From SAR324 cluster bacterium REDSEA-S27_B3 (GTDB lineage: Bacteria > SAR324 > NAC60-12), in NCBI GenBank assembly GCA_001627865.1, contig LUQO01000041.1:6284-70283 (forward strand): a stretch of DNA of 64,000 bases. The letters run 5' to 3'. This document shows, piece after piece, positions 36,235-63,020 of the stretch. The translations under genes were made by a program, and so were the position numbers. The notes under the pieces were generated by a model. It had not been told where the DNA came from. It made no database searches and saw only the letters and a list, made by a program, of their open reading frames with translations. Position 1 is the stretch's first letter, and each line of letters begins with the position of its first letter.

Positions 36235-36319
36235 TGGTGCGAGAAGGGGGACTCGAACCCCCACACCTTGCGGCACAAGATCCTAAATCTTGCGTGTCTA
36301 CCAGTTCCACCACTCTCGC
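36235..36319 (-). tRNA. tRNA-Leu (anticodon UAG)
   Basis: Reverse complement: GCGAGAG-TG-GTG-GAACTGGTAGA-CAC-G-CAAGA-TTTAGGA-TCTTG-TGCCGCAAGGTGT-GGGGG-TTCGAGT-CCCCC-TTCTCGC-ACCA. It folds as a cloverleaf with a long variable arm and an encoded CCA. Confidence 0.95.
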
Positions 36320-37941: not shown

Positions 37942-38019
37942 TGTCTTTCCCGCGAAAGCCGGGAGCCAGAAACTTGTAAGTGTCTGAAATAATGGATTCC
38001 CGCTTTCGCGGGAATGACA
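37942..38019. repeat. Inverted pair of REP-like elements (family GTCATTCCCGC...GCGGGAATGAC)
   Basis: tgtctttcccgcgaaagccgggagcc (37942-37967) and ggattcccgctttcgcgggaatgaca (37994-38019) face each other in opposite orientation across a 26-nt spacer. Confidence 0.6.
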
Positions 38020-38219
38020 AACGAGATTGTAATTTTGAGATTTTAGGTATGCATTCTGTCTTTTAGCCTCTCTACAAAGTATGGTAAGCCAACATATGAA
38101 AGTAATTATGCAAGCCTTGAGCAAAATCTATCCTGTGTTTACGGTCACAATTGAAAATTACAGTTAGTCTTTCACTTGATCAGATTTTAATGCCTGTAAC
38201 CATTTTATAATATTTTTCA

Positions 38220-38801
38220 GTGATTCCAAAATCAGCAATCGTTCAATTCAGTATATTCCTGCTGCTCCTGCTGCCAATTATGATCGGAGCATGTACAAAT
38301 GATGTACAAATCCGCAAATCAGCATTGCGTTACTTTAATGACGGCAACTCTGCATTGAAACATCGGGATTATCAGGCCGCAATCTGGAACTATCAGAAGG
38401 CAATCAGTTTAGACAGTGAATCTCCGAATTTTCATTACAACCTGGGTTTAACCTACTACGAAATAGGCAACTACCAGGAATCAATTGATTCCTTCAAACG
38501 TGTTGAAATGCTTGTCCCAAACCAATCAGACACATATTACAACCTGGCGCTTGCCTACAATAAAGTTTCTGACAGCCGCATGGCAGATATTTATTACAAT
38601 CGCTACCAGGATATGCTGAGCTTGAGAAAGGCTCAGCAAAGGCTGGAGGAAGTCAGGAAGGAGCAGGAAAGAGAAGCAAAAATTTCTGCGTCTGAATCCA
38701 AAAAGAATGTGCTGAAAAGAAGCACACCGGTTTCCTCAAAAAAATCCCGCCCTAATAAAAAGTCAAAAAAAGGAAAATCCGAAATCCCCAAATGGGAATA
38801 A
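38220..38801 (+). CDS. TPR-repeat lipoprotein
   Basis: Lipobox IMIGAC, three TPR-like units (AIWNYQKAISLD, YNLGLTYYEIGNYQESI, YYNLALAY) and a basic C-terminal tail. GTG start. Confidence 0.65.
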   Translation: MIPKSAIVQFSIFLLLLLPIMIGACTNDVQIRKSALRYFNDGNSALKHRDYQAAIWNYQKAISLDSESPNFHYNLGLTYYEIGNYQESIDSFKRVEMLVPNQSDTYYNLALAYNKVSDSRMADIYYNRYQDMLSLRKAQQRLEEVRKEQEREAKISASESKKNVLKRSTPVSSKKSRPNKKSKKGKSEIPKWE

Positions 38802-38997
38802 ATATTAAAATCAGGTACACTCCTGCATTTCTTTAACACATTCTGCTGAAAGTCACTGCAGAAATTTCTACTGCTGAACCATATTTCATTATTGCCCCCT
38901 GCACGCACCACAGAATCCTTGAGTCTTTGAGAATGAAAAGCTACCATTGAAACGGCTTCATTCATGTCCTTCCATAACTTAATAAAGTAAGCATTAA

Positions 38998-40197
38998 ATG
39001 AGTTTGACGCAGCAAAAGTATCTACATCAATTTGACCTGAAATATGGCTGTAATCCTCATCAAAAACCTGCGGCGATACACTCACTTGCTGATCACGGAT
39101 TGCCTTTCAAAGTGCTGAATGGTCAACCCGGTTACATCAATTTAATGGATGCTCTCAACGCCTGGCTGCTGGTGCATGAGCTTGACCAGGTTCTGGAGCT
39201 TCCTTCAGCAGCATCATTCAAGCATGTAAGTCCGGCAGGAGCAGCAGTCAGTGTGCCGCTGGATGATACTTTGGCTGATGTTTACGGCTGTAAAAACCAG
39301 GACCTTTCACCACTTGCCACAGCATACATCAGAGCGCGTGGGGCAGATCCTTTATCGTCTTTTGGTGATTTTATCGCACTCAGCAGAAAAGTTGATGTTT
39401 ACACTGCCGATGTTATCCGGAAAACGGTGTCTGACGGAATTATTGCACCCGGATATGAAGATGACGCTTTCAAATTGATCAAGGAAAAGAAGGCGGGTAA
39501 ATATGTTATTTTACAGGCTGATCCAGAATATGAGGCTCACGAACTTGAATACAGGGAGATTGGCGGAGTAGTCTTTTCTCAATTGAGGAACACTATTCAA
39601 ATTAATCAGAAATCGCTGTTATCGAAAATCGTAACCAAAACAAAAGAGATTCCTGCAGAGGCAGTACGCGATTTGATCCTGGCTTCAATTACACTTAAAT
39701 ATACTCAGTCTAATTCAGTAGGCTATGCCCTGGATGGACAGATGATAGGCATTGGCGCGGGACAGCAAAGCCGTGTTGACTGCACAAAACTGGCTGGACG
39801 AAAAGCTGAAACATGGTTTTTTAGGCAGCATCCTCAAGTTATGCAGCTTCCATTTCAGGAAAATATCAGCAACGTTGAACGAACGAATGCCCGCATTATG
39901 TATATAGAAGGCGGAATGACAGCACCGGAACTGAGGGCCTGGCAAAAACTGTTTTCTTCTCAGGTAGAATTACTTTCAACAGAAGAAAAAGGGCAATGGC
40001 TTTCCGAACTCAATGGAGTCAGTTTGTCTTCAGACGCTTTTTTCCCGTTTCGTGACAACATTGACCAGGCATCTAAACGAGGAGTAAGTTTTATTGCTCA
40101 GCCTGGAGGAAGCAGCCGAGACGAAGAGGTAATTGCCGCGGCAGATGAATACGGAATGGTGATGTCTTTCTCCGGAATACGTCTCTTTCATCATTGA
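38998..40197 (+). CDS. purH: AICAR formyltransferase-domain protein (PurH-like, without the IMP cyclohydrolase/MGS domain)
   Basis: 399 aa. LKYGCNPHQ, FKHVSPAG, GIGAGQQSRVD, and a C-terminal FIAQPGGSSRD. Confidence 0.78.
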   Translation: MSLTQQKYLHQFDLKYGCNPHQKPAAIHSLADHGLPFKVLNGQPGYINLMDALNAWLLVHELDQVLELPSAASFKHVSPAGAAVSVPLDDTLADVYGCKNQDLSPLATAYIRARGADPLSSFGDFIALSRKVDVYTADVIRKTVSDGIIAPGYEDDAFKLIKEKKAGKYVILQADPEYEAHELEYREIGGVVFSQLRNTIQINQKSLLSKIVTKTKEIPAEAVRDLILASITLKYTQSNSVGYALDGQMIGIGAGQQSRVDCTKLAGRKAETWFFRQHPQVMQLPFQENISNVERTNARIMYIEGGMTAPELRAWQKLFSSQVELLSTEEKGQWLSELNGVSLSSDAFFPFRDNIDQASKRGVSFIAQPGGSSRDEEVIAAADEYGMVMSFSGIRLFHH

Positions 40198-40317
40198 ACT
40201 TTTTTCGGGATTTCAGTTTCTTGACTAATACTGGAATCTTAATTTCATTCAGCATGAACAACATATATTTGCTTAAAATTGATGACGATATGATAAGTCA
40301 ATATATCTACCTTGTAT

Positions 40318-40343
40318 GTCATTCCCGCTTTCGTGTTAATGAC
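40318..40343. repeat. REP-like palindromic element, degenerate copy
   Basis: gtcattcccgctttcgtgttaatgac. The left arm is identical to the family; the right arm is diverged. Confidence 0.5.
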
Positions 40344-40387
40344 ATGTTTTATTATATTTCATCAATCTTGATAAATATTTTTCAATA

Positions 40388-42085
40388 ATGAGCAAAAGTA
40401 AGTCATCCCCTTCACCCGCGACAGATTTTATCCGCAATATCATCCGTGAAGATTTAGCTTCAGGAAAACATCAGCGCCTTGTGACTCGTTTTCCTCCGGA
40501 ACCAAATGGACACCTGCACATTGGCCACGCAAAATCAATTCAACTGAATTTTGGCACCGCGGAGGAATTTAACGGAATCTGCTTCATGCGTTTTGATGAC
40601 ACAAACCCGCTGCAAGAGGAAGAAGAGTATGTAGATGGTATTTTACGAGATGTGCGCTGGATGGGTTACGACTGGGACGAAAGGCTTACACATGCCTCAG
40701 ATTATTTTGAACAGCTTTACGAGTTTGCTGAGGAGTTGATAAAAATAAGCAAAGCTTATGTTGAAAGTCAGAACGCTGAACAAATCAGGGAAACACGCGG
40801 AACCCTGACTGAGCCAGGAAAGAACAGCCCATTCCGAGAGAGAAGCGTTGATGAAAATCTAAAACTTTTCAGGAAAATGCGTGCAGGTGAGTTTGAAGAC
40901 GGCGCCCATGTTTTGCGTGCAAAAATTGACATGGCTTCACCGAATATAAATATGCGTGATCCGGTGCTTTACCGTATCCGTAAAGTCTCTCATCAGCGTA
41001 CGGCTGACAATTGGTGCATTTATCCCCTTTATGATTTCACTCACGGTTTGTCTGACGCACTGGAGGGTGTAACCCATTCTCTCTGTACACTTGAATTTGA
41101 AGACCATCGTCCATTATATGACTGGATTCTGGCTGAGGTCAGTGCACCATGTATTCCCCGTCAAATAGAATTCTCGCGGCTTAATCTTGGCTACACTGTA
41201 CTCAGCAAACGAAAACTGATACAGCTTGTTGAAGAAGGCCATGTGGAAGGTTGGGATGATCCGCGCATGCTGACTCTGTCCGGTTTGAGGCGACGAGGCT
41301 TTCCTGCTTCGGCTTTGCGTTTGTTTTGCGAGCGAATCGGCATTTCTAAAAGTGAAAACAATATCGAGATGAGCGTGCTGGAAGATTGTGCGCGTGAAGT
41401 ACTTGACAAATCAGCCCCTCGTGCGATGGGGGTTTTGAGGCCGTTGAAAGTTATTATTACAAATTATCCGGAAGATCAGACAGAAGAATTTGAACCGGCA
41501 AGGCATCCAAAAAATCCTGAAATGGGAACACGTATAGTTCCTTTTTCAAGAGAAATTTTCATTGACCATGACGATTTTCGTGAAGATCCTCCTCCCAAAT
41601 TTTTCAGACTGAGTCCCGGAAAAGAAGTCCGACTGCGATACGCCTACGTAATCCGCTGCGCTGAGGTGATTTATGACAAATCAGGCAAGGTGATTGAACT
41701 GCGCTGCACATACGATCCTGCCACACGCTCCGGTGCAAAAGCGGAAGGACGAAAAGTAAAGGGCATTATTCACTGGGTTTCAGCGAGACATTCAGTTCCG
41801 GTGGAAGTTCGTTTATACGACCGCCTGTTCTCGAAACCGATTCCCGGAAAAGATGATCCGGAAGGAAATTTCCTCAATGACATCAATCCGGATTCAATTG
41901 AAATTATTTCTGACTGCCAGGTTGAGCCTGGATTAACAGCAGCAAACACACAGGAAGTTTATCAGTTCGAAAGAGTGGGCTATTTTTGTCCTGATTCAAA
42001 AGATTCACGCCCGGATGCATTGGTATTTAACCGTACAGTAACCCTGAGAGATACCTGGGCCAGGCTGGAGCAGGATCAAACCTGA
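40388..42085 (+). CDS. glnS: Glutamine--tRNA ligase
   Basis: 565 aa. [14 protein letters not shown] (HIGH motif), VLSKRKL (KMSKS-type motif), and GlnRS-type C-terminal beta-barrels. Confidence 0.93.
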
Positions 42086-42108
42086 CAAAATCGTGAGACA
42101 CGAAGCAG

Positions 42109-43362
42109 ATGTTTTTTTCCAGATCACATCGACTTTTGATTTTTGTGCTTTCCGTACCTGCATTTTTCTTTTTTGTTTCCTCAACAGGATCATCGGTTGT
42201 CTGGGCTTATGATGACGCGCCGGAAATCTATCATTCCTATCTCAATCAGGAAAATTTTCTTGATATTAAATCCTACCAGTTCCATAAATTAAAAGAAGAA
42301 GAATGGTATGAAAGTCAGGGAGGATGGCGTCTGTCCGGTGGAAGCATGGGGCTGGACCTCCTTTATACAGATCTGGAAGTACGACTGCCTTATCAGCTTG
42401 GAGAGGAAGCTACTGTTTATTTTAAAGCATGGCAGGAAGAATTTTATGAAATTAAACCCTTCCGGTATCTGGTGGAAGTTGAATGGCGTGCAGTCAAGCA
42501 GGTCGGGTTATCTTTTCTCGGAATGCCGGAATATGACAAGCGCAAAGCCGATCAGGGCGGAAGCATTACGTGGGGGAAAAGACCATGGAATTACCTTAGA
42601 TTCCAGCAGTTATTCCAGGATCTTTATTATAACGAAAAGAATTTTTACGATACTTCATATTATTCACCGCATCCTGTCGAAAATCATCTTGAAGGCGCGT
42701 TCAGCTGGAATAACTGGCGAGGCCGCTTCAGTTATGTGCTGGACAAACCATTCAAACAGGTATTTCCAAAACAGGAGCTGACATTTACATATAAAAGCAA
42801 AGACAGCAGGGCAACACTGGATTACCACTATGGAGAACAACGGCTGGCCGGTCTGAGCTGTCGCAGCTTCGATATTCAAAAACGCCGGGAAATAAAAAAT
42901 CCTTCCGAATCTTCTTCTCCCGATAACCGGCAACAGCAGCTGCTTTACACATCAACAGATTTGTATTGGCTTCATCCTCTGAGCGCGGAAATGCATGGAA
43001 CAATTGGATTGCGTGAAGACCGTTTTCGCAATTTGTTCAGGCAGCTGGATTTGGCTTATGATAATTACGATTTTCATTTGTGGACATTGCAGCTTTACGG
43101 AATTCTCCGTCACAAAACTGCTGCGGACAGATACCGTGAATATGCCCTGTATGCCGCAGACACTGACAAAGTAACCGATTATCACAGTGCTGAAAGGGAA
43201 GATAAAGCACGGAGAAAACCTGAAGTCAAATTTCGCGTGAGCTGGGATTTACAGAATTCAGCCAATCAGTCCGCCCTGATGTTCACAACCAGCTGGAATC
43301 TGGATGATTTTTTCAACGACTTCTGGGATGGCGGAAACATTTCTTACCAGAAAACTTTTTAG
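42109..43362 (+). CDS. Hypothetical exported protein, possibly an outer-membrane beta-barrel
   Basis: Signal peptide (LLIFVLSVPAFFFFVSS), aromatic-rich with alternating hydrophobic patterns, and a C-terminal ...ISYQKTF with terminal Phe. Confidence 0.5.
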   Translation: MFFSRSHRLLIFVLSVPAFFFFVSSTGSSVVWAYDDAPEIYHSYLNQENFLDIKSYQFHKLKEEEWYESQGGWRLSGGSMGLDLLYTDLEVRLPYQLGEEATVYFKAWQEEFYEIKPFRYLVEVEWRAVKQVGLSFLGMPEYDKRKADQGGSITWGKRPWNYLRFQQLFQDLYYNEKNFYDTSYYSPHPVENHLEGAFSWNNWRGRFSYVLDKPFKQVFPKQELTFTYKSKDSRATLDYHYGEQRLAGLSCRSFDIQKRREIKNPSESSSPDNRQQQLLYTSTDLYWLHPLSAEMHGTIGLREDRFRNLFRQLDLAYDNYDFHLWTLQLYGILRHKTAADRYREYALYAADTDKVTDYHSAEREDKARRKPEVKFRVSWDLQNSANQSALMFTTSWNLDDFFNDFWDGGNISYQKTF

Positions 43363-43507
43363 CTGATAACATTCCTTTTATGCACTATCATTTCTTGCTT
43401 TAGGAAAAACTGTTTCCACCTTCAGGAACAGCTAAACCCAACCTTAAACTCTGATATGCCTAGACACCCAGCAACCACTGGAACAAATTAATCTTTTGAG
43501 TAAAACC

Positions 43508-44899
43508 ATGAGCATTGAAAATTTTGACCAAATACAGAACTTCGATAACGAAAACTTCGTGCATCCCTGGGAGAGCATGAAAGATTTCGGCTGCAACACC
43601 CGCACGTTTGCTGAAAGCGCAGAGGGGATCTACCTCTACGACGAAAAAGGCCAGAAGCTGATTGACGGGCCCGGCGGCATGTGGTGCGTGCAGATTGGCT
43701 ACGGACGCAAGGAGATGGCCGAGGCGATTGCCGAACAAGTCCTCAAGATGCCGTACTACTCGCCGTGGAACATGAGTGCGTCGCCGAGCGCGGTGCTGGC
43801 CAACAAGCTGGCCGAGTTGGCTCCGGGAGACCTGAACCACGTCTTCTTCACGACCTGTGGCTCCACCGCCGTGGACACCGCCATCCGCTTCGTGCAGTTT
43901 TACAACAACGTGCGGGGGTTCCCCCGGAAGAAGCGGATCATCTCGCGGGAAAAAGCCTACCACGGCAGCACCTACCTGAGTGCTTCACTCTGCGGCAAGG
44001 CCCGTGACAAGGACTGGCTGGACACCGCGCACGAGCTGGTGCATTTTCTCCCGGATGTCAACCCCAGCCGCCGCCCGGAAGGGATGAGCACGGAGGCATT
44101 TTTGGAGGAAAAGGTCGCCGACCTCGAAACGGCGATCCAGACGCTCGGCACAGAGAACGTCGGAGCCTTCATCGCCGAGCCGGTGCTGGCCTCCGGAGGA
44201 GTGATCGTCCCGCCCGCAGGCTACCACCAACGCTGCCTGGAGATCTGCCGTAAGCACGACGTGCTGTACATCTCCGATGAGGTCGTGACGGGGTTTGGCC
44301 GTTTGGGGCACTGGTTTGCGTCCAAGGAGGTTTTCGGCATCGAGCCGGATTTGATCACCTGCGCCAAGGGGTTGACTTCCGGCTATGTGCCGATGGGCGC
44401 TTGTCTTATCTCCGATCGCATTTTCAGGGAAATCTCCGGAGAACGCTCGCAGGGCGCGTCCTTCAGCAACGGCTACACCTACTCCGGACATCCAGTGGCC
44501 GCTGCCGCTGGGCTCAAGAACTTGGAGATCATCGAAAACGAGGGACTGCTGGAGCATGTCCGCGAAATCTCGCCGTACTTTCAACAGCGGCTCCGGGAAC
44601 TGCGGAAACTGCCGCTGGTGGGCAACACCCGTGGCGTCGGGCTGGTTGGCTGCATTGAAGGCCGCATCGTGGACCCGGACAATCCGGACGCACTGGCAAT
44701 GGACGTTGCGATGGGTTCCCGCATTGACAAGCACTGTCAGGCGTTGGGGCTGATAGTACGTCCGCTCCTGAACATGTGCGTGTTCTCGCCCCCGCTGATC
44801 ATAACTGTAGAACAAATTGATGAGATGTTCAACATACTTGAGCAGGGAATCCTCCGGGCCACGGAGGACTTGCGCCAGGAAGGTTTGTGGAAAGGATAA
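43508..44899 (+). CDS. Class III (omega) PLP aminotransferase, putrescine/beta-alanine:pyruvate-type
   Basis: GGMWCVQIGYGR, YHGSTY, ISDEVVTGFGRLG, and CAKGLTSGY (PLP lysine). The ATG at 43508 is preferred over the TTG at 43496. Confidence 0.88.
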   Translation: MSIENFDQIQNFDNENFVHPWESMKDFGCNTRTFAESAEGIYLYDEKGQKLIDGPGGMWCVQIGYGRKEMAEAIAEQVLKMPYYSPWNMSASPSAVLANKLAELAPGDLNHVFFTTCGSTAVDTAIRFVQFYNNVRGFPRKKRIISREKAYHGSTYLSASLCGKARDKDWLDTAHELVHFLPDVNPSRRPEGMSTEAFLEEKVADLETAIQTLGTENVGAFIAEPVLASGGVIVPPAGYHQRCLEICRKHDVLYISDEVVTGFGRLGHWFASKEVFGIEPDLITCAKGLTSGYVPMGACLISDRIFREISGERSQGASFSNGYTYSGHPVAAAAGLKNLEIIENEGLLEHVREISPYFQQRLRELRKLPLVGNTRGVGLVGCIEGRIVDPDNPDALAMDVAMGSRIDKHCQALGLIVRPLLNMCVFSPPLIITVEQIDEMFNILEQGILRATEDLRQEGLWKG

Positions 44900-46985
44900 T
44901 CCAGGATGACACAACGCGATCCCCGTTACGACATTCTCTTTGAGCAGGTGCCAATTGGTCCGGTGACGGCCCGCAACCGCTTTTACCAGGTTCCGCACTG
45001 TAACGGTATGGGCCATGTACGCCCAAACACGCTTGCTGCCATGCGTGGGATCAAGGCCGAGGGCGGCTGGGCGGTGGTCTGTACTGAGGAGGTGGAAATT
45101 CATGCCAATTCCGACAACGGCCTAGCAGCGGAAGGACGGCTCTGGGACGATGGCGACATTCCAGCACTGGCGAAAATGGCGGCAGCAGTGCATGAGCATG
45201 GAGCGCTCGCCGGAATCGAACTCGTTCACGGTGGCTATTCCAGCGCCAATCACTATAGCCGCATCCCGCCGATTGCCCCCAGCGTGGCCTCCGTCAATTC
45301 CTACGATCCGGTGCAGGCACGGGCGATGACCAAGGCCGACATCCGTGATTTTCGCAAATGGCACCGTCAGGCGGCGTTGCGGGGCAAGCAGGCGGGCTTC
45401 GATCTCGTTTATGTCTATGCCGGGCACAACCTGACGCTGCTGATGCACTTCCTCTCCCGCCGCTTCAACCAGCGCACGGACGAATACGGCGGCTCGCTGG
45501 AAAACCGCGTGCGCCTCTTCCGGGAAGTGCTGGAGGAGACCAAGGAGGCCGTGGGCGACCGCTGTGCCGTCGCGGTGCGTTTTGCTGTGGATGAATTGCT
45601 TGGTCCCAAGGGCATCACCGCTGAGAACGAAGGCCGGGAGGTCATCGAGATGCTGGCGGAACTGCCGGACCTCTGGGACGTGAACATCAGCGAATGGGAG
45701 AACGACTCAGCGACCTCGCGCTTTGAGAAAGAAGGCTATCAGGAGCCATACATCGGCTTCGTCAAATCGCTCACCTCCAAGCCCGTGGTGGGCGTGGGAC
45801 GCTACACCTCCCCGGACACGATGGTTTCGCTTATCCAGCGCGGAGTGATGGACCTGATCGGTGCGGCGCGGCCCTCGATTGCCGACCCGTTCCTGCCCAA
45901 GAAAATCGAGGAGGGGCGGCTTGATGAAATCCGGGAGTGCATCGGCTGCAACATCTGTGTGGCGGGAGACTGGCTGGCGGTGCCGATGCGCTGCACGCAG
46001 AACCCCACGATGGGCGAGGAGTGGCGGCGCGGCTGGCACCCGGAACACATCGAGCCGAGTAGAAGCGACGAAGGCGTGCTGGTCGTGGGCGGCGGGCCTG
46101 CCGGGCTGGAATGCGCCCTCGCGCTCGGCCAGCGCGGCTACCGTGTGATGCTGGCGGAAGCGTCCGAGGAACTCGGCGGACGGGTCAGCCGGGAAAGCCG
46201 ACTGCCCGGACTCGCCGAGTGGGGGCGTGTGCGAGACTATCGGGCGACACTGCTGGAGAAGCAGGAAAACGTCACGCTGTATCGCGGCAGCAAGCTGAGC
46301 GCAGAGGACATTCTGGAGTTCAGCGCGAAAGACCAATTCGGATTCTCCCATGTGTTGCTCGCGACCGGAGCAACGTGGCGGCGGGATGGCATTGCCCGCG
46401 AACACCGCGAGCCGATTCTCGGATTGGATCACATGACGGTGCTGACCCCGGACGATCTGATGGACGGAGTTTCCGCAAGCGGGAACGTCGTGATTTTTGA
46501 CGACGAGCATTACTACATGGGCGGGGTGTTGGCCGAAAAACTGCGGCTCGACGTCCATGAGGTTCGGCTGGTCACTCCGGCTCCGGACATTTCCAACTGG
46601 ACGCACCACACGATGGAGCAAGGGCGCATCCAAACGCGGCTGCTGGAACTCGGCGTGGAGCTTGCGCCGCAGCACAACCTTGTCTCCGTGCATTCCGGAG
46701 AGGTTGAGTTGGCCTGTGTCTTCACGGATCGGCGCACGCGCCACGTCTGCGACACCTTGGTGCTGGTCACGGAACGTCTGCCCAACAACACCCTCTACCA
46801 CCAATTGCAGTCCAATCCGGAAGGACTCGCTCAAGCTGGGATCAAGACGCTACGGTGCATTGGCGATTGCTTTGCGCCCGGAATCATTGCCGCCGCCGTG
46901 CATTCCGGGCACCTCGCCGCCCGCGAGCTTGAAGCAGAGGCTCCCGGCGAAGTGCCGTTCCTGCGCGAGCGCGTGGTTGTTTTAA
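43555..46985. other. GC-rich compositional block (about 57-68% GC in hand-counted lines) embedded in about 40% GC DNA
   Basis: Hand counts per 60 nt: 43441-43500 24; 43501-43560 19; 43561-43620 34; 43801-43860 36; 46921-46980 41; 46981-47040 16. Confidence 0.7.
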
Positions 46986-46996
46986 ATGAAATCTGA
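44906..46996 (+). CDS. Trimethylamine/dimethylamine/histamine-dehydrogenase-family iron-sulfur flavoprotein
   Basis: 696 aa, colinear with TMADH as recalled: RNRFYQVPHC (Cys for 6-S-cysteinyl-FMN), RTDEYGGSLENR, CIGCNICV...CTQN (4Fe-4S ligands), and VVGGGPAGLE (ADP-binding fold). Confidence 0.85.
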   Translation: MTQRDPRYDILFEQVPIGPVTARNRFYQVPHCNGMGHVRPNTLAAMRGIKAEGGWAVVCTEEVEIHANSDNGLAAEGRLWDDGDIPALAKMAAAVHEHGALAGIELVHGGYSSANHYSRIPPIAPSVASVNSYDPVQARAMTKADIRDFRKWHRQAALRGKQAGFDLVYVYAGHNLTLLMHFLSRRFNQRTDEYGGSLENRVRLFREVLEETKEAVGDRCAVAVRFAVDELLGPKGITAENEGREVIEMLAELPDLWDVNISEWENDSATSRFEKEGYQEPYIGFVKSLTSKPVVGVGRYTSPDTMVSLIQRGVMDLIGAARPSIADPFLPKKIEEGRLDEIRECIGCNICVAGDWLAVPMRCTQNPTMGEEWRRGWHPEHIEPSRSDEGVLVVGGGPAGLECALALGQRGYRVMLAEASEELGGRVSRESRLPGLAEWGRVRDYRATLLEKQENVTLYRGSKLSAEDILEFSAKDQFGFSHVLLATGATWRRDGIAREHREPILGLDHMTVLTPDDLMDGVSASGNVVIFDDEHYYMGGVLAEKLRLDVHEVRLVTPAPDISNWTHHTMEQGRIQTRLLELGVELAPQHNLVSVHSGEVELACVFTDRRTRHVCDTLVLVTERLPNNTLYHQLQSNPEGLAQAGIKTLRCIGDCFAPGIIAAAVHSGHLAARELEAEAPGEVPFLRERVVVLNEI

Positions 46997-47086
46997 CATT
47001 TTCAAAGAAACTGAATTCATCAGAAAAAATATTGGTGTCGATAGTTAATCTGAATTACTATGTATTAATTTGCCAAAAGGAGATTT

Positions 47087-48091
47087 ATGAAAACAGTGGG
47101 TGACGGTGCTTTCCGCAGGGAAGATTTACATAGCCGCTCAAATGACATGACCTTTTCAGGTGCGCTCAGTTTTCTGCGACGCAAGTATTCCCGTGACTTA
47201 ACAGGGGTGGATGTTGCAGTGACAGGTATTCCTTATGATTGTGCCACCAGTAATCGCCCAGGAGCCCGCTTCGGACCTCGTGGAATTAGAGCAGCCTCTA
47301 CAGAGATTGCCTCACTGGATGCTTTCCCCTTTAATTTCGACCCCTTCGAACATCTGGCCGTAGTTGATTATGGAGATGTGTGGCTGGATTACGGATACCC
47401 GCAGCATGTTGTGGAGAAGGTGGAAAAACATGCCGACACAATCCTGAAGCAGGGCACCTCGATGCTGAGCTTCGGGGGAGATCACTTCATCACCTATCCT
47501 TTGCTGCGTGCACATCACAAGGTACATGGACCTCTCTCACTGATACACTTTGACGCGCATTCAGACACGTGGGATGACGACGGCAACAGGCTGGATCATG
47601 GCTCCATGTTCCTGAGGGCGGCACGGGAGGGGATTGTGGTTCCGGAGAAATCTGTGCAAATCGGAATCAGAACACAAAATTATTGCACACAGGGCTTCAA
47701 CATTCTGTATGCCCCATGGGTACATACTAACGGAGTGCAGGCTGTGATTGACAGTATTCACAAATTCGTTTCACCGGATGATCCTGTTTATATTACTTTT
47801 GATATTGACTGCCTCGACCCTGCTTTTGCCCCAGGAACCGGGACTCCTGTTGTAGGAGGTTTGAGCACCACACAGGTTTTGCCGATACTGCAATCCCTTG
47901 GTGACCTCAATTTGATTGGAATGGATATTGTTGAGGTGGCACCGGCTTACGACCATGCGGAAATCACTGCTTTGGCGGCTTCTGCCATTGGCTACAACTA
48001 CCTGTGCCTGCTGGCGCAAAAGAAGGGGGCGCAGGCAAAGTACATTGGAACCCGGCTTGATGAAACCCCTAGCGGCTTTGCCTCAGGCTGA
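47087..48091 (+). CDS. speB: Agmatinase/guanidino-acid ureohydrolase (arginase family)
   Basis: Mn-binding motifs GGDH, HFDAHSD and TFDIDCLDP. 334 aa. Confidence 0.85.
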   Translation: MKTVGDGAFRREDLHSRSNDMTFSGALSFLRRKYSRDLTGVDVAVTGIPYDCATSNRPGARFGPRGIRAASTEIASLDAFPFNFDPFEHLAVVDYGDVWLDYGYPQHVVEKVEKHADTILKQGTSMLSFGGDHFITYPLLRAHHKVHGPLSLIHFDAHSDTWDDDGNRLDHGSMFLRAAREGIVVPEKSVQIGIRTQNYCTQGFNILYAPWVHTNGVQAVIDSIHKFVSPDDPVYITFDIDCLDPAFAPGTGTPVVGGLSTTQVLPILQSLGDLNLIGMDIVEVAPAYDHAEITALAASAIGYNYLCLLAQKKGAQAKYIGTRLDETPSGFASG

Positions 48092-48155
48092 TCAGAAGTC
48101 GGCCTTGACCACTTATAACAATTCCAAGTTGAGGCAGGTCCACGCTGGTATTCGT

Positions 48156-48887
48156 TCAGGGCAGGGGCAGCTTGGCCATTCGTCCACCGTCCACCGTGTA
48201 AACCTGTCCGGTCACAAAGGACGCCGCATCTGATGCCAGCCAGGCAACAAGTTCGGCGACCTCTTCCGGACTTCCCGTGCGCCCAACAGGGTGGATATGA
48301 CCGGTGTCTTTACGGAACTGTTCCGGATTTGGCATGGAGTTGATGAAATCGATGTTGAGATCAGTATCAATCCAGCCCGGAGCCACCGCATTGCAACGAA
48401 TGCCTTCCGGGCCGTGATCCACCGCAACAGCACGTGTGAGCCCGTGTAATCCTGCCTTGGACGCACAGTATGCGGGATGCCGGGGATTCGATCCCAGCCC
48501 CTCAATGGAACCGATGTTGACAATCGCCCCGTGTCCACGCAACAGCGGAAGGGAGTGTTTGATCAAGAGAAACGGTGCACGCAGATTTACCGACAATGTG
48601 CGTTCCCAGTCCTCCAGAGGCATTTCCTCCACAGTACCCTCCAGCATCATGCCCGCGTTGTTTACCAGAATGTCGAGTCGTCCAGCCTTTTCCTTCAGTT
48701 GCGTTATAACTGCTTCGGGCGCCTCTGGATCAGCAAGGTCAACCAAAATGGTCTCAAAATCGTTAGCACGTTGCCTTTGCGCGGTAAACACGCGAATGTC
48801 ATCCTCCGCAAACCGTTGGGCACATGCGAGGCCAATACCACTGCGCCCGCCCGTCACCAGTGCCACCTTTTGCAGCGTTTTGCTCAT
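48156..48887 (-). CDS. Short-chain dehydrogenase/reductase
   Basis: [16 protein letters not shown] and YCASKAG. The start is set at MSKTLQK, whose ATG overlaps the upstream SDR stop as ATGA (48884-48887). Confidence 0.85.
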
Positions 48888-49636
48888 GCGACAGCCTTCC
48901 CGCCGTTTACCTCTACCAACGCGCCACACATGTAGCGTGACTTTTCGGAGGCCAGAAACAGCACCACATCGGCTATGTCCTCCGGTTCTGCAATACGACC
49001 GAGCGGCACGGACTGATTCAACTCCAAAATCGCACGATCCGGGTCAAGCCCACGAATCTCAAATCCCGACCTGATCATAGGGGTGTTGACTTCATTGGGA
49101 CATACGGCATTGACACGGATTCCTTGATGAGCATGATCCTTGCCCAGACACTGAGTCAGCGAGGCAAGCGCAGCCTTGGTCATGCAGTAAAGCGGATGGT
49201 TCTGCCCAGGATATACACCCCAGCACGAAGCGACGTTGACAATTGCTCCTCCGCCGTTTTCCTCCAGCAAAGGTATCGCTGCACGGCAGATACGGAACGG
49301 TGCTTCGATATTGACCGACACTGAGAGCCGGAAATCCTCATCGCTGGCTTCCGTCACAGGACCACGTCGTATGATTCCGGCGTTGTTGATGACTATGTCC
49401 AGTCCACCCAGCACCTCAGCCGCCTGCTGGGGCAAGGTATCACAATAATCCGGATCGGTTAAATCCCCAGGAAGCATATCGTCGCTGACAACTCCATCAG
49501 CGTGTTGATCGACTCCCACAACGAATGCTCCAGACGCGGTCAGTGCCTTTACGATGGCCTGCCCTATTCCACCGGCAGCTCCGGTAACCAAGGCCTTTTT
49601 CCCGGAAAGATCAGCAAAGTCCGTCTCTGTTTTCAT
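48884..49636 (-). CDS. Short-chain dehydrogenase/reductase
   Basis: [15 protein letters not shown] and YCMTKAA. 250 aa. Confidence 0.85.
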
Positions 49637-49775
49637 AAAGCTACTGTCAGCAAATTAAATTATTGAAATTCAAAATAACTTTTGGACAATTCTCAATACT
49701 GACCCAAACTCACCATATATGGTCCTGCATTACCCACCGTTAGAGGGCTGTGGTGAGTAGAAAGTGTTCGATTCA

Positions 49776-50675
49776 TCAAGAATCATCCAGAGATTTTCTG
49801 CCGGCCAATGCCTCAAAAGTGTCAATAAGCAGGCGTCCCTGCTGAATTTCATGAACACGCAGAACAGACACACCCTGCCAGAGAGCAATGCCGGAAACTA
49901 AAGCACAGGGAATATCCCTTTCGGTAAAACTTAATCTGCGTCCGTTTGAAACTTCAGCCAAGAATGACTTTCTTGAAGGCCCAAGCAACAATGGTAAATC
50001 AAATTCATGCAATTCCGAAATTCTGCGTATGACCTCAAAACTGTATTTTGCATGACCGCTGATAAAAAAACCCATTCCCGGATCAATCACAATCTGACTT
50101 CTGTCAATCCCCAAGGACTCAGCATATTTGATACGTTCACTGAAAAAGTTCCGGAGCGTGTCCAGCACATCCCGGTATTCAGTTTGATCACGTGTTGTTC
50201 GTGGAGAAGCATCCTTAGAGTACATCATAACCACAGGCGCCTGATATTGCGCGATCACTCCCGCCATTTCCTTGTCGGCACGCAGAGCGCTTACATCATT
50301 TACAGCATCTGCCCCTGCTGCCAGTGACTTTCGAGCAACCTCTGCCTTCCATGTGTCCACGGAAATCCAGATATCACTTTCCTTGCGTATTGCCTGAATC
50401 AGTGGGATAACCCTTCGCAGTTCTTCCTCCAGTGGTACTTCCATACTGTCTGGTCCGGAAGACTCGCCGCCTATGTCCAGCCAGTCAGCGCCGTCCTCTA
50501 TAATTTTCCTGGCCTGGGACATTCCGTCTTCGAATTGGAAAAAGCTGGATCCGTCAGAAAATGAATCCGGAGTGGGATTCAGTATGCCCATCAGGCGAGG
50601 TCGGTCCAGGTTCAAAGTTTTTGCTCCGGAAACAAGTGTACGCGGGGGCAGTTCAAAAGGTGCGTAATCCATCAT
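49776..50675 (-). CDS. folP: Dihydropteroate synthase
   Basis: MGILNPTPDSFSDG, DIGGESSGP and VNDVSA. 299 aa. Confidence 0.9.
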   Translation of the reverse strand: MMDYAPFELPPRTLVSGAKTLNLDRPRLMGILNPTPDSFSDGSSFFQFEDGMSQARKIIEDGADWLDIGGESSGPDSMEVPLEEELRRVIPLIQAIRKESDIWISVDTWKAEVARKSLAAGADAVNDVSALRADKEMAGVIAQYQAPVVMMYSKDASPRTTRDQTEYRDVLDTLRNFFSERIKYAESLGIDRSQIVIDPGMGFFISGHAKYSFEVIRRISELHEFDLPLLLGPSRKSFLAEVSNGRRLSFTERDIPCALVSGIALWQGVSVLRVHEIQQGRLLIDTFEALAGRKSLDDS

Positions 50676-50772
50676 TATGTATTGGGTTTATTTGCCAAAT
50701 TGTAGAAAAAATGGTACTCCATTACTGTGACATTTTCCAAAAAAACTTAAATCCAAACCTGAACATTCAAAG

Positions 50773-51669
50773 ATGCTGACTTCCGGACCCGGAAAATTTC
50801 TTGCTCCAACATCACTTGGGGCAGGATATGCTATTGCCAAAATGCTTTCACTGAGAGCGCTTGACGCAGAGCTGGCAATCGCCCAGGATTTTTTTTACCA
50901 GTTCCTGGCGGGAGTTTTGCTGGGTTTCGCGCTGCGTCCTGTGGCAAGTATGATATACTGGAAACGTTTAAGTTCGATCATTGTATTCTCATTGTTTTTA
51001 ATTACACTTGGTCCGCTTGGGCAAACTTTCAGGCATCTGCTCTGGGGAACTCCTTTAAATGATGCTTTCTGGTCATTAATTATTCCGGAAGCAACTACCG
51101 CAATTTTCGTGGGAATACTCGTGACATTTCTGCTTCCCAGCAGTCATCAGGTGATAAGTCCGGGGTTTCTCTGGCGAAGACTGAAACAGGAGATCAACAT
51201 CTCCGGAACAATCAAGGTGCTGGGTTGCGGTTTAATTTACATGCTTTTATTTATAATTCTGCAAATCACATTTGATGAAAGTTTTGCCGCGCCATTCTGG
51301 ACGGAGCGTTTGACGGAGATATTGCACCAGCCTCCGTTATTACCGCAGTTAAAAGTCCTGCTTTTGTGGACTCAAGGCATTCTCAATACTTTGATACTGT
51401 TGCCTTTTTTCCTGGTTTTTTTTCGAGAGAAAGTTGAGCTGATTGTTGTGCTTGGTTCCCTGACATTTGTGGTGGCAGATTTTGCTCCGGCTTTTGCGAA
51501 TTTTCAGCGAATTGAACCGCTGCTTCTGCTGGACCAGGTATTCGTGGGATTCTGCCTGCAGTTTCTGTTTGTAACCGCAGCAGTTTTTTGTTTTGGACGT
51601 AATCAGCAAAAACAGCAGCGTAATACTTTTTCTGAGAAACCCCTATCAAATAAATATAAAAACGAATAA
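50773..51669 (+). CDS. Hypothetical polytopic membrane protein (298 aa)
   Basis: Multiple hydrophobic spans. It ends 3 nt before the next aminotransferase gene. Confidence 0.5.
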   Translation: MLTSGPGKFLAPTSLGAGYAIAKMLSLRALDAELAIAQDFFYQFLAGVLLGFALRPVASMIYWKRLSSIIVFSLFLITLGPLGQTFRHLLWGTPLNDAFWSLIIPEATTAIFVGILVTFLLPSSHQVISPGFLWRRLKQEINISGTIKVLGCGLIYMLLFIILQITFDESFAAPFWTERLTEILHQPPLLPQLKVLLLWTQGILNTLILLPFFLVFFREKVELIVVLGSLTFVVADFAPAFANFQRIEPLLLLDQVFVGFCLQFLFVTAAVFCFGRNQQKQQRNTFSEKPLSNKYKNE

Positions 51670-51672
51670 CAA

Positions 51673-52971
51673 ATGAGTTTATTTGCAGAACGAAATTACC
51701 GGATTGACACGGAGAACGCCTTCAAAGTAGGTCCGCATATTGTGCGTGTGGAACAGCAGAAAGGCGAGGTTATCAAGTTGAATCTGGGTGAGCCTGATTT
51801 TGCTGTTCCAAAGCATATAAAGGATGAAATCAAACGCCAGTTGGACTTGGATAATACTAACTACTGTGATCCCAAAGGACTGTTTTCTTTGCGTGAGGCT
51901 ATCAGCAGCCAGATCAATCAGACAAGAGGACTGAAAACAAATCCGGAACAGGTGGTGGTGTTCCCCGGAGGCAAGCCCTCGATTGGACTGGCACAACAGG
52001 TTTACTGTGAGTCGGGTGATGAAGTTATCTATCCAAGTCCGGGATTCCCGATTTATGAATCGTTCATCCGCTATGTCGGTGCTGTTCCTGTTCCCCTGCA
52101 TCTGGAAGAGGCAGCCAACTTCACCTTTTCTCCGGATCAACTCGCAGACAAGATCACTCACAAAACAAAGCTGATTTACCTCAATTTCCCCTCCAACCCA
52201 ACCGGAGGAGTTGCCACGCGAAAACAGATAGAGGAATTTGCCAATGTCATTCTTGAACACTGTCGGCCTGATATGCGTGTTTATTCAGATGAAATATATG
52301 AAAACATCATTTTTGACGGACAGCAGCACTACTCAATTTCTTCAGTTCCCAGCATGTCGGAACGTACGATCATCGCCAGCGGATTCTCAAAAAGCTATGC
52401 ATGGACAGGCGGAAGAATCGGCTATGCTGTTTTCCCCACAATTGAAGAAGCAGATGTTTTAAAAAAACTAAACATCAATTATTTCTCCTGTGTCCCTCCT
52501 TACAATCAGGAAGCAGCACGGGAAGCGCTTGAAAATCCATTGTCGAAGCAGGCAGTGAAAAAGATGGTGGACACTTTTGAAACACGGCGAAATCTGATCT
52601 GGAAGCAAATCAACCAAATCCCGGGAATCTGCTGCCAGAAGCCCGGAGGAGCATTTTACTTGTTTCCAAATATTTCTGGTATCTGCGAATATTTAGATTT
52701 GATTGAAAAGCATCAGCACCTTCCCATAGAAGAACAGAGTTCTCCGGCTAACCTGTTTCAGATGTTTGCCTTGTACGGGCATCAGGTTGCAGTACTGGAC
52801 CGTAAATCATTTGGACAAATAGGTGCTGAAGGAAAACACTTTCTGCGTCTTTCAATAGCCTCAGAGCAGTCTCTGCTTGAAGAAGGTGTGCTCCGCATAA
52901 AAAATGCCGCGGAAGACATTTCCGGACTGGACAAATTTCTGAGGCAGCGTCCGGACCTTAAATCAACTTGA
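51673..52971 (+). CDS. Class I/II PLP-dependent aminotransferase
   Basis: 432 aa. LNLGEPDF, NFPSNPTG, and SGFSKSYAWTGGRIGY (PLP lysine). Confidence 0.82.
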   Translation: MSLFAERNYRIDTENAFKVGPHIVRVEQQKGEVIKLNLGEPDFAVPKHIKDEIKRQLDLDNTNYCDPKGLFSLREAISSQINQTRGLKTNPEQVVVFPGGKPSIGLAQQVYCESGDEVIYPSPGFPIYESFIRYVGAVPVPLHLEEAANFTFSPDQLADKITHKTKLIYLNFPSNPTGGVATRKQIEEFANVILEHCRPDMRVYSDEIYENIIFDGQQHYSISSVPSMSERTIIASGFSKSYAWTGGRIGYAVFPTIEEADVLKKLNINYFSCVPPYNQEAAREALENPLSKQAVKKMVDTFETRRNLIWKQINQIPGICCQKPGGAFYLFPNISGICEYLDLIEKHQHLPIEEQSSPANLFQMFALYGHQVAVLDRKSFGQIGAEGKHFLRLSIASEQSLLEEGVLRIKNAAEDISGLDKFLRQRPDLKST

Positions 52972-61180: not shown

Positions 61181-61212
61181 CTATACTCCTTTTATTTATG
61201 TTAATAAAAACA

Positions 61213-61230
61213 TTATCAATCACAGCTGTT
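61213..61230 (+). repeat. Left copy of an imperfect direct repeat flanking the AT-rich region
   Basis: ttatcaat-c-acagctgtt here versus ttatcaat-at-acagctgtt at 62123-62141. Confidence 0.5.
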
Positions 61231-61782
61231 CATTCTAAACATTCCGGATGATAATGCGGAAAAAGTTCTAAACGAACAAAATGGCTTCAATCAAGAGCCT
61301 AATTTCGGTAAACATTACCGTATTAAATAGACTGAAGCCAACCCTGTATCAGCATTATAAGGCAAATCCACGGCTTATTAATATCATCAGCAAAATATAT
61401 ACCACTTATTATATGTAGTTGATAATATGTATTATTATTAAATATTTATAAAGATTATTTACCAGTAAATAAATAAATACAATGGTGATTATTATACGAT
61501 TTTGTTAATAATGAATTCTTTGTATTTCTATAAATAATGAAAGTTATCTACATATTCCTGGTGTTATTATTAACTATTCATTTGAAGCATTGAAGATCTG
61601 GATTATGATTATGATTTTATACGGCAAAAGTAAAAATTAATGGTTATATCTTTATGTTTATTCCAAATCATACACGGTTTATTTTTGCCATTTCAAATAT
61701 ATGATATTGGGAAAGATATAAGCATAACCATGCCTAATGATGTTGTGGCATAAATTTAAAAAAAATTGACTGTCTTAAACAA

Positions 61783-61811
61783 TGATATAATATATATTAA
61801 TTCAAATAGCT
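61783..61811 (+). repeat. 29-nt direct repeat, copy 1 (tgatataatatatattaattcaaatagct), preceded by TTGACT at 61766-61771
   Basis: 27 of 29 positions are identical to 61941-61969. Confidence 0.6.
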
Positions 61812-61927
61812 TAAAACTTTAACCCTGAAATAGTTTGCTTTAACCATTATATATATTTTATAAATATTCCAATCTCAATTCTCTAAATGTCATATTTCTT
61901 TTCATTTACTATACCTCAAAATACCTA

Positions 61928-61956
61928 TTGACAATTATTTTGATACTATATATATT
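61928..61956 (+). promoter_or_regulatory. Near-consensus sigma70-type promoter overlapping repeat copy 2
   Basis: TTGACA (61928-61933), a 17-nt spacer, then TATATT (61951-61956). It lies about 270 nt upstream of the metallophosphoesterase ATG. Confidence 0.4.
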
Positions 61957-61969
61957 AATTCAAATAGCT
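61941..61969 (+). repeat. 29-nt direct repeat, copy 2 (tgatactatatatattaattcaaatagct)
   Basis: 27 of 29 positions are identical to 61783-61811. The copies are spaced 158 nt apart. Confidence 0.6.
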
Positions 61970-62122
61970 GAATACCTTGTTTTTAATAAAACTGACTCTT
62001 TATGCTATTAAGTAAAATCTGTAATTTTCCTTTCGACTATTTTCAATATTACCTGTTTCTTTTAATATACTATCTTCAAATATAATACAATCTTTTTATG
62101 CACTTTCTGGAAGTTAGATTAC

Positions 62123-62141
62123 TTATCAATATACAGCTGTT
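62123..62141 (+). repeat. Right copy of an imperfect direct repeat flanking the AT-rich region
   Basis: It shares identical 8-nt and 9-nt blocks with 61213-61230. Confidence 0.5.
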
Positions 62142-62228
62142 TTGTAAAAGAAAGGAGCATGCAAGACGGTTTTGTTTTTTTCAAAGTTTCAATCTGAAAT
62201 CATTTAATAGAATCTCGATAATTCCTCT

Positions 62229-63020
62229 ATGAAAATAATACAGATCACAGACACACATTTGATGTCGCGAGGGACTGAGCTGCACGGACTCAATCCCTGT
62301 ATACGTCTAGAAGCGTGTGTTGCCAATATCAATGAGAATCACTCTGACGCGGAAATGTGTATCATCACTGGTGACCTGACTGAACGTGGTGATATTGGCG
62401 CATACCAAGATTTTTACGAGATTATAGGGCGTCTGTCTATACCTTGTCACCCTCTGATTGGGAATCATGATCATCGAGAAAAATTTTGTAAAATATTTCC
62501 TAATGTACCACGAGATGAGCATGGATTTGTTCAACAGAAGCTGCAAACTCCGGTTGGCCGTTTTCTGCTGCTTGATACAGTGGAAGATGGAGCAAACTGG
62601 GGTTCATTTTGTGAAAAGCGTGGTGATTGGCTCCGGAATGAATTGGATAAATCCGGGAATGAACCTGTTTACCTGTTCATGCACCATCCTCCTTTTGAGA
62701 TCGGCATTCCTGTCCTGGATGACATTAACCTACGTGATGACTCACTGCGAATACACCAAATCCTGAGTAATTATACAAACATAAAGCACATCTTCTTTGG
62801 GCATGTCCATCGTCCTGTATGCGGAAGCTGGTATGGCATTCCTTTCAGCACAATGTACGGCACGAATCATCAGGTGCAGCTTGATTTAAATGCGAAAGAC
62901 TATTTCCCTCACACTCATGAACCTCCGACGTATTGCGTGATTTTTATTGAATCTGAACAGACGACCGTTCATATTCATAACTATCTTGATGATTCGCTTT
63001 ACAAGAGAATTTCATTCTGA
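62229..63020 (+). CDS. Metallophosphoesterase (CpdA/GpdQ-like phosphodiesterase)
   Basis: ITDTHL, ITGDLTERGD, GNHD, and HHPP...GHVH motifs. 263 aa. Confidence 0.75.
   Translation: MKIIQITDTHLMSRGTELHGLNPCIRLEACVANINENHSDAEMCIITGDLTERGDIGAYQDFYEIIGRLSIPCHPLIGNHDHREKFCKIFPNVPRDEHGFVQQKLQTPVGRFLLLDTVEDGANWGSFCEKRGDWLRNELDKSGNEPVYLFMHHPPFEIGIPVLDDINLRDDSLRIHQILSNYTNIKHIFFGHVHRPVCGSWYGIPFSTMYGTNHQVQLDLNAKDYFPHTHEPPTYCVIFIESEQTTVHIHNYLDDSLYKRISF

Follow-up and report, generated by a model that had tools for sequence, protein, structure and literature searches.

Probable in-situ replacement of an aminotransferase–amine dehydrogenase gene pair in a Red Sea SAR324 population by orthologues from a 60%-GC lineage

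In-situ xenologous (orthologous) gene displacement was reportedly described for mosaic operons by Koonin, Omelchenko and colleagues in the early 2000s. Mosaic genes produced by homeologous recombination are known from the penicillin-binding-protein genes of Streptococcus pneumoniae and from penA of Neisseria, and the flexible (replacement or additive) genomic islands of marine bacteria are said by Rodriguez-Valera and colleagues to be exchanged via conserved flanks. Here we analyze a locus with features of each of these systems, which lies in a 64,000-nucleotide stretch of DNA (hereafter, the window, to which coordinates refer) from SAR324 cluster bacterium REDSEA-S27_B3 (assembly GCA_001627865.1, contig LUQO01000041.1, positions 6,284 to 70,283). 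Positions 43,556-46,977 of the window, ~3.42 kb, are occupied by donor-type DNA of high guanine-plus-cytosine (GC) content that covers nearly all of two adjacent genes on the + strand, one encoding a class-III omega-aminotransferase (43508..44899, 463 aa) and the other a flavoprotein of the histamine-dehydrogenase/trimethylamine-dehydrogenase family of amine dehydrogenases (44906..46996, 696 aa). Based on the evidence set out below, we consider it very probable that this block arose by in-situ allelic (xenologous) replacement, through recombination of foreign DNA into resident homologs. In our literature searches we came across no earlier account of it.

The original prediction made for this DNA had pointed to a GC jump at both edges and to GC-rich third codon positions in between, and the sliding GC, third-position GC (GC3) and tetranucleotide analyses it called for all single out the block. 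The GC content of 43,560-46,980 is 61.6%, compared with a mean of 43.8% for 3.4-kb windows outside 40-50 kb (standard deviation 2.4, maximum 48.7), which corresponds to z ~7. Followed in 300-nt windows, GC runs at 0.39-0.47 up to ~43,700, at 0.54-0.71 over 43,550-47,000 and at 0.44-0.48 just beyond. The GC3 of the aminotransferase and flavoprotein genes (0.77 and 0.75) likewise stands against 0.39-0.45 in the flanking purH-like gene, glnS, hyp417 (a hypothetical gene) and folP, with intermediate values downstream in an agmatinase-family gene (0.51) and two SDR genes (0.55-0.58). In tetranucleotide usage the block lies at a distance of 0.0505 from the remainder of the window, whereas host 3.4-kb windows lie at 0.0148 ± 0.0033 (maximum 0.0297). 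The long spurious antisense open reading frames (ORFs) predicted for the block are also present, at 43,985-45,103, 45,707-46,834 and 43,460-43,963, and have no Pfam match. In agreement with the predicted lack of mobile-element hallmarks, Pfam and NCBIfam scans of all ORFs in 38,998-51,669 gave no integrase, recombinase or transposase, and a repeat search found no repeat pair bracketing both block edges. A scan of the window for tRNAs and known RNA families yielded a sole tRNA at 36,235-36,319, none near the block, and nothing else of relevance.

Searching 5.8 billion proteins with the aminotransferase returned nothing between 94% and 100% identity; the nearest non-identical sequences formed a tight group at 93-94% amino acid identity, and the next tier, at 85% and below, was SAR324. 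The tight group belongs to a lineage whose contigs have 60% GC (for example CAZQXS010000002, labelled 'uncultured Pseudomonadota bacterium') and which is represented here by locus L020 (loci retrieved for comparison are numbered with the prefix L). The window and L020 pairs share 94% amino acid and 89-90% nucleotide identity, with a synonymous divergence (dS) of 0.41 for the aminotransferase and 0.46 for the dehydrogenase gene and a nonsynonymous divergence (dN) of 0.033. In neighbour-joining protein trees the two pairs are sisters, unlike the window flanks, whose affinity is to the SAR324 loci L021 and L108; identity matrices agree with the trees. Composition points in the same direction: the tetranucleotide profile of the block correlates with that of native L020 genes (Pearson r 0.89) and not with that of the host (-0.03), and its GC3 of 0.75-0.77 is close to the 0.78-0.81 of L020, against 0.40 in the host.

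In the 60%-GC lineage the pair forms part of a full cluster that follows mutL, a context that recurs on at least ten contigs from several projects. The native GC3 of L020 is 0.75 in mutL and 0.84 in PrkA, and that of the cluster 0.74-0.86; judged by these values, the cluster is high-GC DNA of native composition there. The best outside matches of the lineage's MutL are SAR324 MutLs, at 54-56% identity, while SAR324 MutLs are mutually 71-97% identical. We therefore regard the 60%-GC lineage as a deep high-GC relative of SAR324 and not a close one. As a separate observation, the nine-gene clusters of L020 (8404-19868) and L021 (7743-19236) are 82-91% identical at the amino acid level, despite MutL being only ~55% identical, which suggests that the whole cluster crossed between these lineages at an earlier time. 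Five further marine metagenome contigs, L171-L175 (GC 0.56-0.59), carry a homologue of hyp417 at 47% identity, and one of them, L173, comes from the same source metagenome as the SAR324 locus L132. These contigs might belong to the donor lineage; a comparison of L171-L175 with the L020 lineage found no shared sequence.

The position that the block occupies is conserved across SAR324. The gene order purH-like, (GST), glnS, hyp417, ..., folP is kept in many metagenome-assembled genomes (MAGs) assigned to SAR324, Lambdaproteobacteria or Deltaproteobacteria, in one single-cell genome and in metagenome contigs, and the interval between hyp417 and folP (43363-49775 in the window; loci L105-L160) is variable, with at least five gene-content versions. 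It may be empty, with hyp417 followed directly by folP (L113-L121, L124-L127, L144, L147), or hold an inverted agmatinase-family gene alone, the aminotransferase plus agmatinase, or the aminotransferase, dehydrogenase and agmatinase on the + strand; the fifth version is the full nine-gene cluster, with MTTB methyltransferase, aminotransferase, dehydrogenase, binding protein, ureohydrolase, ABC transporter and Rieske oxygenase. Both the aminotransferase and the dehydrogenase gene lie between hyp417 and folP in L021, L106, L108, L153, L018, L022, L019 and L111. In L017, a transposase-like ORF with HTH_29/HTH_32 was noted 3' of the aminotransferase gene.

Among these relatives the pair diverges in step with its surroundings. 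L021 and L108 are 95% identical in GlnS, 94% in Hyp417 and 95% in both the aminotransferase and the dehydrogenase; for L018 and L022 the corresponding figures are 96%, 96%, 97% and 97%, and for the more distant L021 and L018 they are 86%, 84%, 89% and 89%. Since pair identity tracks flank identity, the pair appears normally to be inherited with the locus. Recurrent introgression across SAR324, which we also considered, is not supported, as outside the window the pair co-diverges with its flanks. The flanks of the window are nearest to L021 and L108 (GlnS 85-87%, Hyp417 82-84%), and a search of metagenome contigs for closer host relatives via hyp417 found nothing between 100% and 84%, so that the event is not bracketable more tightly.

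The relatives share genes and locus with the window but not its GC contrast: their resident pairs have a GC3 of 0.34-0.58, near that of their own flanks (0.27-0.43), with an excess of 0.04-0.16. That an excess of this size (+0.04 to +0.16) recurs in the cluster in all SAR324 lineages would agree with vertical inheritance of the window pair accompanied by local GC enrichment, through codon-usage selection or GC-biased gene conversion. We find this explanation highly improbable, keeping in mind that the block is ~90% identical in nucleotide sequence to the 60%-GC lineage and bears its tetranucleotide signature, that protein trees group it with that lineage and not with the flank relatives, and that its synonymous differences from SAR324 alleles coincide with L020 states. 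Moreover, the adjoining agmatinase gene, of the same presumed pathway, is not enriched, and the steps in composition are abrupt, within ~10 nt on the right.

Alignment of the window with donor-type and resident-type alleles located both ends of the exchanged tract. Sliding DNA identity to L020 is 0.85-1.0 over ~43,600-46,950 and collapses outside, and beyond the block the window resembles SAR324 loci. Within the block there are 15-25 donor-type informative sites per 100 nt, compared with 0-6 of resident type; the two kinds are roughly balanced at 43,400-43,599, and resident-type sites prevail past 47,000. Maximum chi-square analysis placed breakpoints within both coding sequences, at the positions where the original prediction had put the edges (43,552|43,561 and 46,966|46,978). 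On the right, where the statistic reaches 207.7, the sequence is of donor type up to 46,966 and of resident type from 46,978, and the crossover interval between them (46967..46977, + strand) consists of GAGCGCGTGGT, 11 nt that are the same in the window, L020 and the resident locus L153. The join thus lies 6-10 codons before the stop of the window gene and three to six codons before the resident stop. The resident alleles of L018, L019, L108 and L153 end in ...GTGGTTGTTTGA and the L020 allele in ...GTGGTGGTGGAAGGG; the window is of donor type through CTGCGCGAGCGCGTGGT and then continues with the resident-type GTT GTT, so that a resident-type 3' tail of the flavoprotein gene, 46978..46996 on the + strand, can be delimited by alignment with L018, L019, L108, L153 and L020. 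The resident stop codon TGA is TTA in the window, and LNEI is added before the new stop. The comparison of gene core with gene termini thereby gave different nearest neighbours, L020 for the core and resident alleles for the last codons and stop region.

These termini also bear on the possibility that a foreign two-gene cassette was inserted by illegitimate recombination into an empty slot, with no involvement of resident homologues. The many SAR324 lineages with an empty slot provide conceivable targets, and the slot does gain and lose genes, the SDR pair of the window being one such insertion. However, the block is bordered on either side by DNA homologous to that flanking resident pairs in relatives: the downstream intergenic DNA and agmatinase gene of the window are 62-94% identical to those of L108 and L153, and upstream lies a remnant of an MTTB gene. 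Considering in addition that the final GTT GTT codons and the stop region are of resident type and that the nearest flank relatives of the window all carry the pair, we regard such an insertion as quite unlikely.

The left edge is less sharply defined than the right. Here the maximum chi-square value is 47.5, between 43,552 (resident type) and 43,561 (donor type) in codons 15-18 of the aminotransferase gene, and the crossover interval (43553..43560, + strand; codons 16-18) is AACTTCGT, 8 nt that are the same in the window, donor-type and resident-type sequences. The first 17 codons encode a peptide rich in N, F, E, D, Q and I and have a GC content of 31% in the window and 41% in the 60%-GC relative; because they are AT-rich even in that lineage, the apparent composition step inside the gene is partly a matter of amino acid composition. 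The predicted left step thus coincides with a breakpoint at codons 15-18, but in part it mirrors the peptide, and its support is weak.

Both junctions are reproducible across assemblies. At least 22 contigs encode an aminotransferase identical to that of the window, and 8 encode an identical flavoprotein, in every case beside the same neighbours. Both 401-nt junction segments were present at 99.3-100% identity in 15 fetched loci; these came from Red Sea MAGs at NCBI, from assemblies of at least two ENA submission sets and from two metagenomes at JGI. Over 14 kb these loci are 99.7-99.96% identical to the window, with scattered single-nucleotide polymorphisms (SNPs); based on these SNPs and the separate projects, we take the loci to sample a single population independently of one another. 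This population, the host of the block, is SAR324 from the Red Sea: LUQI, LUQM and LUQS are the MAGs SAR324 cluster deltaproteobacterium REDSEA-S09_B3, S21_B5 and S45_B3, with 42.9% GC and from 500 m (PMC4932879). A search of genome-collection contigs gave no 100% match from the species of the window itself.

The original prediction had allowed for a chimeric assembly, and with a metagenome-assembled source it is natural to ask whether SAR324 sequence was misjoined or misbinned with that of a high-GC organism where the two have homologous genes in common, the more so as L104, a contig of this same population, leaves the block partway through and continues as unrelated DNA. The odds of such an artifact are nevertheless vanishingly small. 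At least 15 contigs, from NCBI, ENA and JGI and differing in SNPs, project and assembler, contain both junctions; the block is only ~90% identical to the known high-GC lineage; identity between the window and L020 extends over just 8-11 bases at the joins, not enough to mislead k-mer assemblers; and among the contigs found, the window's version of the block occurs in no other context, its exact proteins being confined to SAR324 surroundings. As to L104 (LUME01003111.1, corresponding to window 41601-45256), it carries a 69-nt in-frame deletion at window 44383-44451 and switches at window 45256, inside the block, to unrelated DNA of 22-39% GC; it is probably itself a chimeric metagenome contig.

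In summary of the genealogical evidence, the phylogeny of the block conflicts with that of the flanks, the breakpoints fall inside the homology between donor and resident, and relatives hold orthologues at the locus, the pattern that marks a displacement. We therefore favor replacement in situ, which could have proceeded as follows. The ancestor of the Red Sea SAR324 population would have held a low-GC aminotransferase and dehydrogenase pair between hyp417 and the agmatinase-family gene, upstream of folP. DNA from the 60%-GC lineage, distant to SAR324 and carrying the orthologous pair within a larger amine-catabolism cluster, would have recombined with this resident pair, and donor sequence would have overwritten nearly the whole shared stretch, ~3.42 kb, with joins in short identical stretches at its two extremes, the 8-nt one on the left and the 11-nt one on the right. 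Gene ends, intergenic DNA and neighbours would have stayed resident and AT-rich, while the replaced genes, now fixed in the population, would have drifted slightly toward the host AT bias at synonymous sites. In the donor the pair is flanked by an MTTB gene upstream and a binding-protein gene downstream, and in the recipient by the MTTB remnant and the agmatinase gene on the + strand. As donor and recipient share only the two genes, the exchanged tract would run to the limits of homology on both sides, which in turn accounts for edges just inside the genes with host-like termini and spacers. Since the donor-type alleles match those of resident type at only 78-80%, and without a break for at most 20-41 nt, the exchange was presumably homeologous or ended in microhomology joins. 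We infer, rather than observe, the route of DNA entry and the choice between RecA-type homeologous exchange and homology-facilitated microhomology joining. Of the two interpretations first offered for the block, replacement into pre-existing homologs is the one that holds, given the SAR324 orthologues in the slot, the kinship to L020 and the ending of identity at the homology limits; the chimera does not, and neither does the qualifier 'very recent'.

Several observations weigh against this reading. Classical homologous recombination would work poorly on alleles that are 78-80% identical. The sampled lineages do not include the true donor, the nearest relative being dS ~0.43 away, and the nearest host relative is distant as well (Hyp417 84%), so that the pre-replacement allele of this lineage is seen only via relatives. 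The left join rests on few sites, with 3 of resident type and 1 of donor type within the coding sequence, and its uncertainty is really ~43,490-43,561. Aminotransferase codons 1-40 form a mosaic that is 81% identical to the donor type (91% for the rest of the gene) and mixes donor-like, resident-like (IQNFDN, MKD, ESAEG) and several window-unique states. Finally, the MTTB remnant is about equally far from L020 and L021, which leaves room on the left for a larger donor fragment that was trimmed later.

According to this last possibility, a donor fragment that included MTTB upstream integrated and was subsequently reduced, and the left edge of the block is a deletion scar. The remnant in question (43374..43499, + strand) is a decayed, AT-rich 3' end of an MTTB-family methyltransferase gene, which precedes the aminotransferase gene in fuller cluster versions (L021, L020), and it aligns to the last ~125 nt of MTTB in both loci; over 43,452-43,500 it is 64% identical to L021 and 53% to L020, with lower identity further upstream. 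Besides its near-equal distance to the two loci, the two bases before the ATG (CC), which match L020 and not the resident alleles, would fit a trimmed fragment. The remnant has ~40% GC, though, and is at least 45% diverged from L020, whereas the synonymous sites of the block are only 32-35% off L020 and still 76% GC, and a co-transferred neutral remnant should not decay beyond the block's synonymous sites. We thus hold later trimming to be very unlikely, and retain replacement confined to the shared gene pair.

The replacement was initially thought to be very recent, which is not the case. The dS of 0.41-0.46 to the donor relative, the fixation of the block together with the polymorphism it carries, and a net AT-ward shift all speak for an older event. 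Differences from the donor relative are skewed to A/T in the window (171 vs 119 sites). In seven copies compared over 38000-52000 (the window, L001, L002 and L004-L007), segregating sites per kb numbered 0.5 in purH-glnS-hyp417, 3.8 in the block, 9.2 in agmatinase-SDR and 7 beyond folP. At the same time, the GC3 of the pair has come down only from ~0.79 to ~0.76, against a host level of ~0.40, so on the time scale of amelioration the pair has resided in this host only briefly. Phylogenetically, the event falls on the long branch that follows divergence from L021- and L108-like lineages.

The two replaced genes belong to well-defined enzyme families. The aminotransferase exceeds the curated class-III family threshold over its whole length (PF00202, E 7e-84, 282 bits with a cutoff of 30.5; PRK07036, 696 bits with a cutoff of 618), and its PDB matches include 3i5t (E 1.5e-154) and the putrescine aminotransferase 6gwi (E 1e-101); by homology, it resembles putrescine/polyamine:pyruvate transaminases. 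The dehydrogenase matches PDB 3k30, histamine dehydrogenase, across residues 7-688 (E 2.5e-239), and, as expected for the histamine/trimethylamine dehydrogenase family, the N-terminal flavin-cysteine motif VPHCNGMG and the 4Fe-4S motif CIGCNICV...RCTQNP, of the pattern C-x2-C-x2-C...C, are aligned and conserved. Given a dN/dS of ~0.08 between the block pair and L020 and the intact cofactor motifs of the dehydrogenase, both genes are predicted to be functional and under purifying selection. Together with the agmatinase-family gene they most likely form a module for catabolism of polyamines or other biogenic amines; family membership suggests polyamines, agmatine or other biogenic amines as enzyme substrates.

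Downstream of the block, 47087..48091 (+ strand) encodes the agmatinase-family ureohydrolase (PRK02190, 456 bits), a resident SAR324 allele nearest to L021, L108 and L153 (0.77-0.94 at the DNA level). We considered this gene as part of the transfer and rejected it, its nearest sequences being SAR324 alleles and its dS to L020 1.41. It is followed by two SDR-family oxidoreductase genes on the - strand (48156..49636; GC3 0.55-0.58), which occur in this lineage only and are absent from all other SAR324 slot versions seen. Outside matches of the first SDR are at 87% (a short contig) and then at 78-79% in MAGs of Arenicellales and Pseudomonadota; with best matches that are Arenicellales-like at 78-79%, an origin from the donor of the block was rejected, and the SDR pair would, on these affinities, be a second, separate foreign insertion from a different source. 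The slot is bordered on the left by the lineage-specific hyp417 (42109..43362, + strand, 417 aa), which is syntenic in all SAR324 loci examined at 62-84% amino acid identity and has no match in Pfam and NCBIfam, and on the right by folP, encoding dihydropteroate synthase (49776..50675, - strand; TIGR01496, 266 bits), likewise syntenic in SAR324 loci. Elsewhere in the window, positions 61190-62229 form a ~1-kb gene-free spacer of 26% GC in which ATATATATTAATTCAAATAGCT occurs twice, beginning at about 61,789 and about 61,949.

What the locus offers is an unusually well-resolved transfer by replacement, not addition, in which the locus, the resident alleles, the donor lineage and the crossovers can all be read in public data from uncultured marine bacteria. 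It shows that a 17-point difference in GC does not bar core-like catabolic genes of SAR324 from exchange and that abrupt intragenic composition steps in MAGs need not mean chimeras. Binning by composition can overlook such blocks or assign them wrongly, and no match to the block came from the species representative of the genome collection. A broader proposal, that genes pass through this slot on a standing basis between marine SAR324 and a sister lineage, deep-branching and of 60% GC, with recombination across ~20% divergence at 8-11-nt microhomologies, strikes us as unlikely; if true, barriers to homeologous recombination would have to be unusually weak in these uncultured bacteria. As it stands, the case opens no new biological question.

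Among known systems, classical genomic islands and integrative elements resemble the block in being compositionally deviant and in lying in a variable chromosomal slot, but the block lacks an integrase or transposase, a tRNA target and flanking direct repeats, its edges are intragenic and its content is orthologous to what relatives carry at the locus. With the flexible islands of marine bacteria it has in common a slot, hyp417|folP, with at least five gene-content variants in SAR324; here, however, the cargo genes themselves gave the homology, and the conserved flanks were not used. The pneumococcal and Neisseria mosaic genes are similar in that intragenic crossovers join alleles that are up to ~20% divergent in DNA, with no mobile-element signature. 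In those mosaics the donors are congeneric and of similar GC and antibiotic selection is the driver, whereas the donor of the block has a MutL only 54-56% identical and 60% vs 43% GC, and no selective advantage is evident (the orthologues are 83-88% identical). The closest parallel is in-situ xenologous displacement, in which, as here, a distant orthologue replaces the resident at the same position, neighbours and function are kept and the phylogeny conflicts with the flanks. It differs from earlier displacements in that the donor lineage is identified, both joins are mapped to 8-11 nt inside coding sequences and the 17-point GC contrast is barely ameliorated. Cumulatively, this case is a well-resolved further example of in-situ xenologous displacement, an unsurprising kind of transfer.

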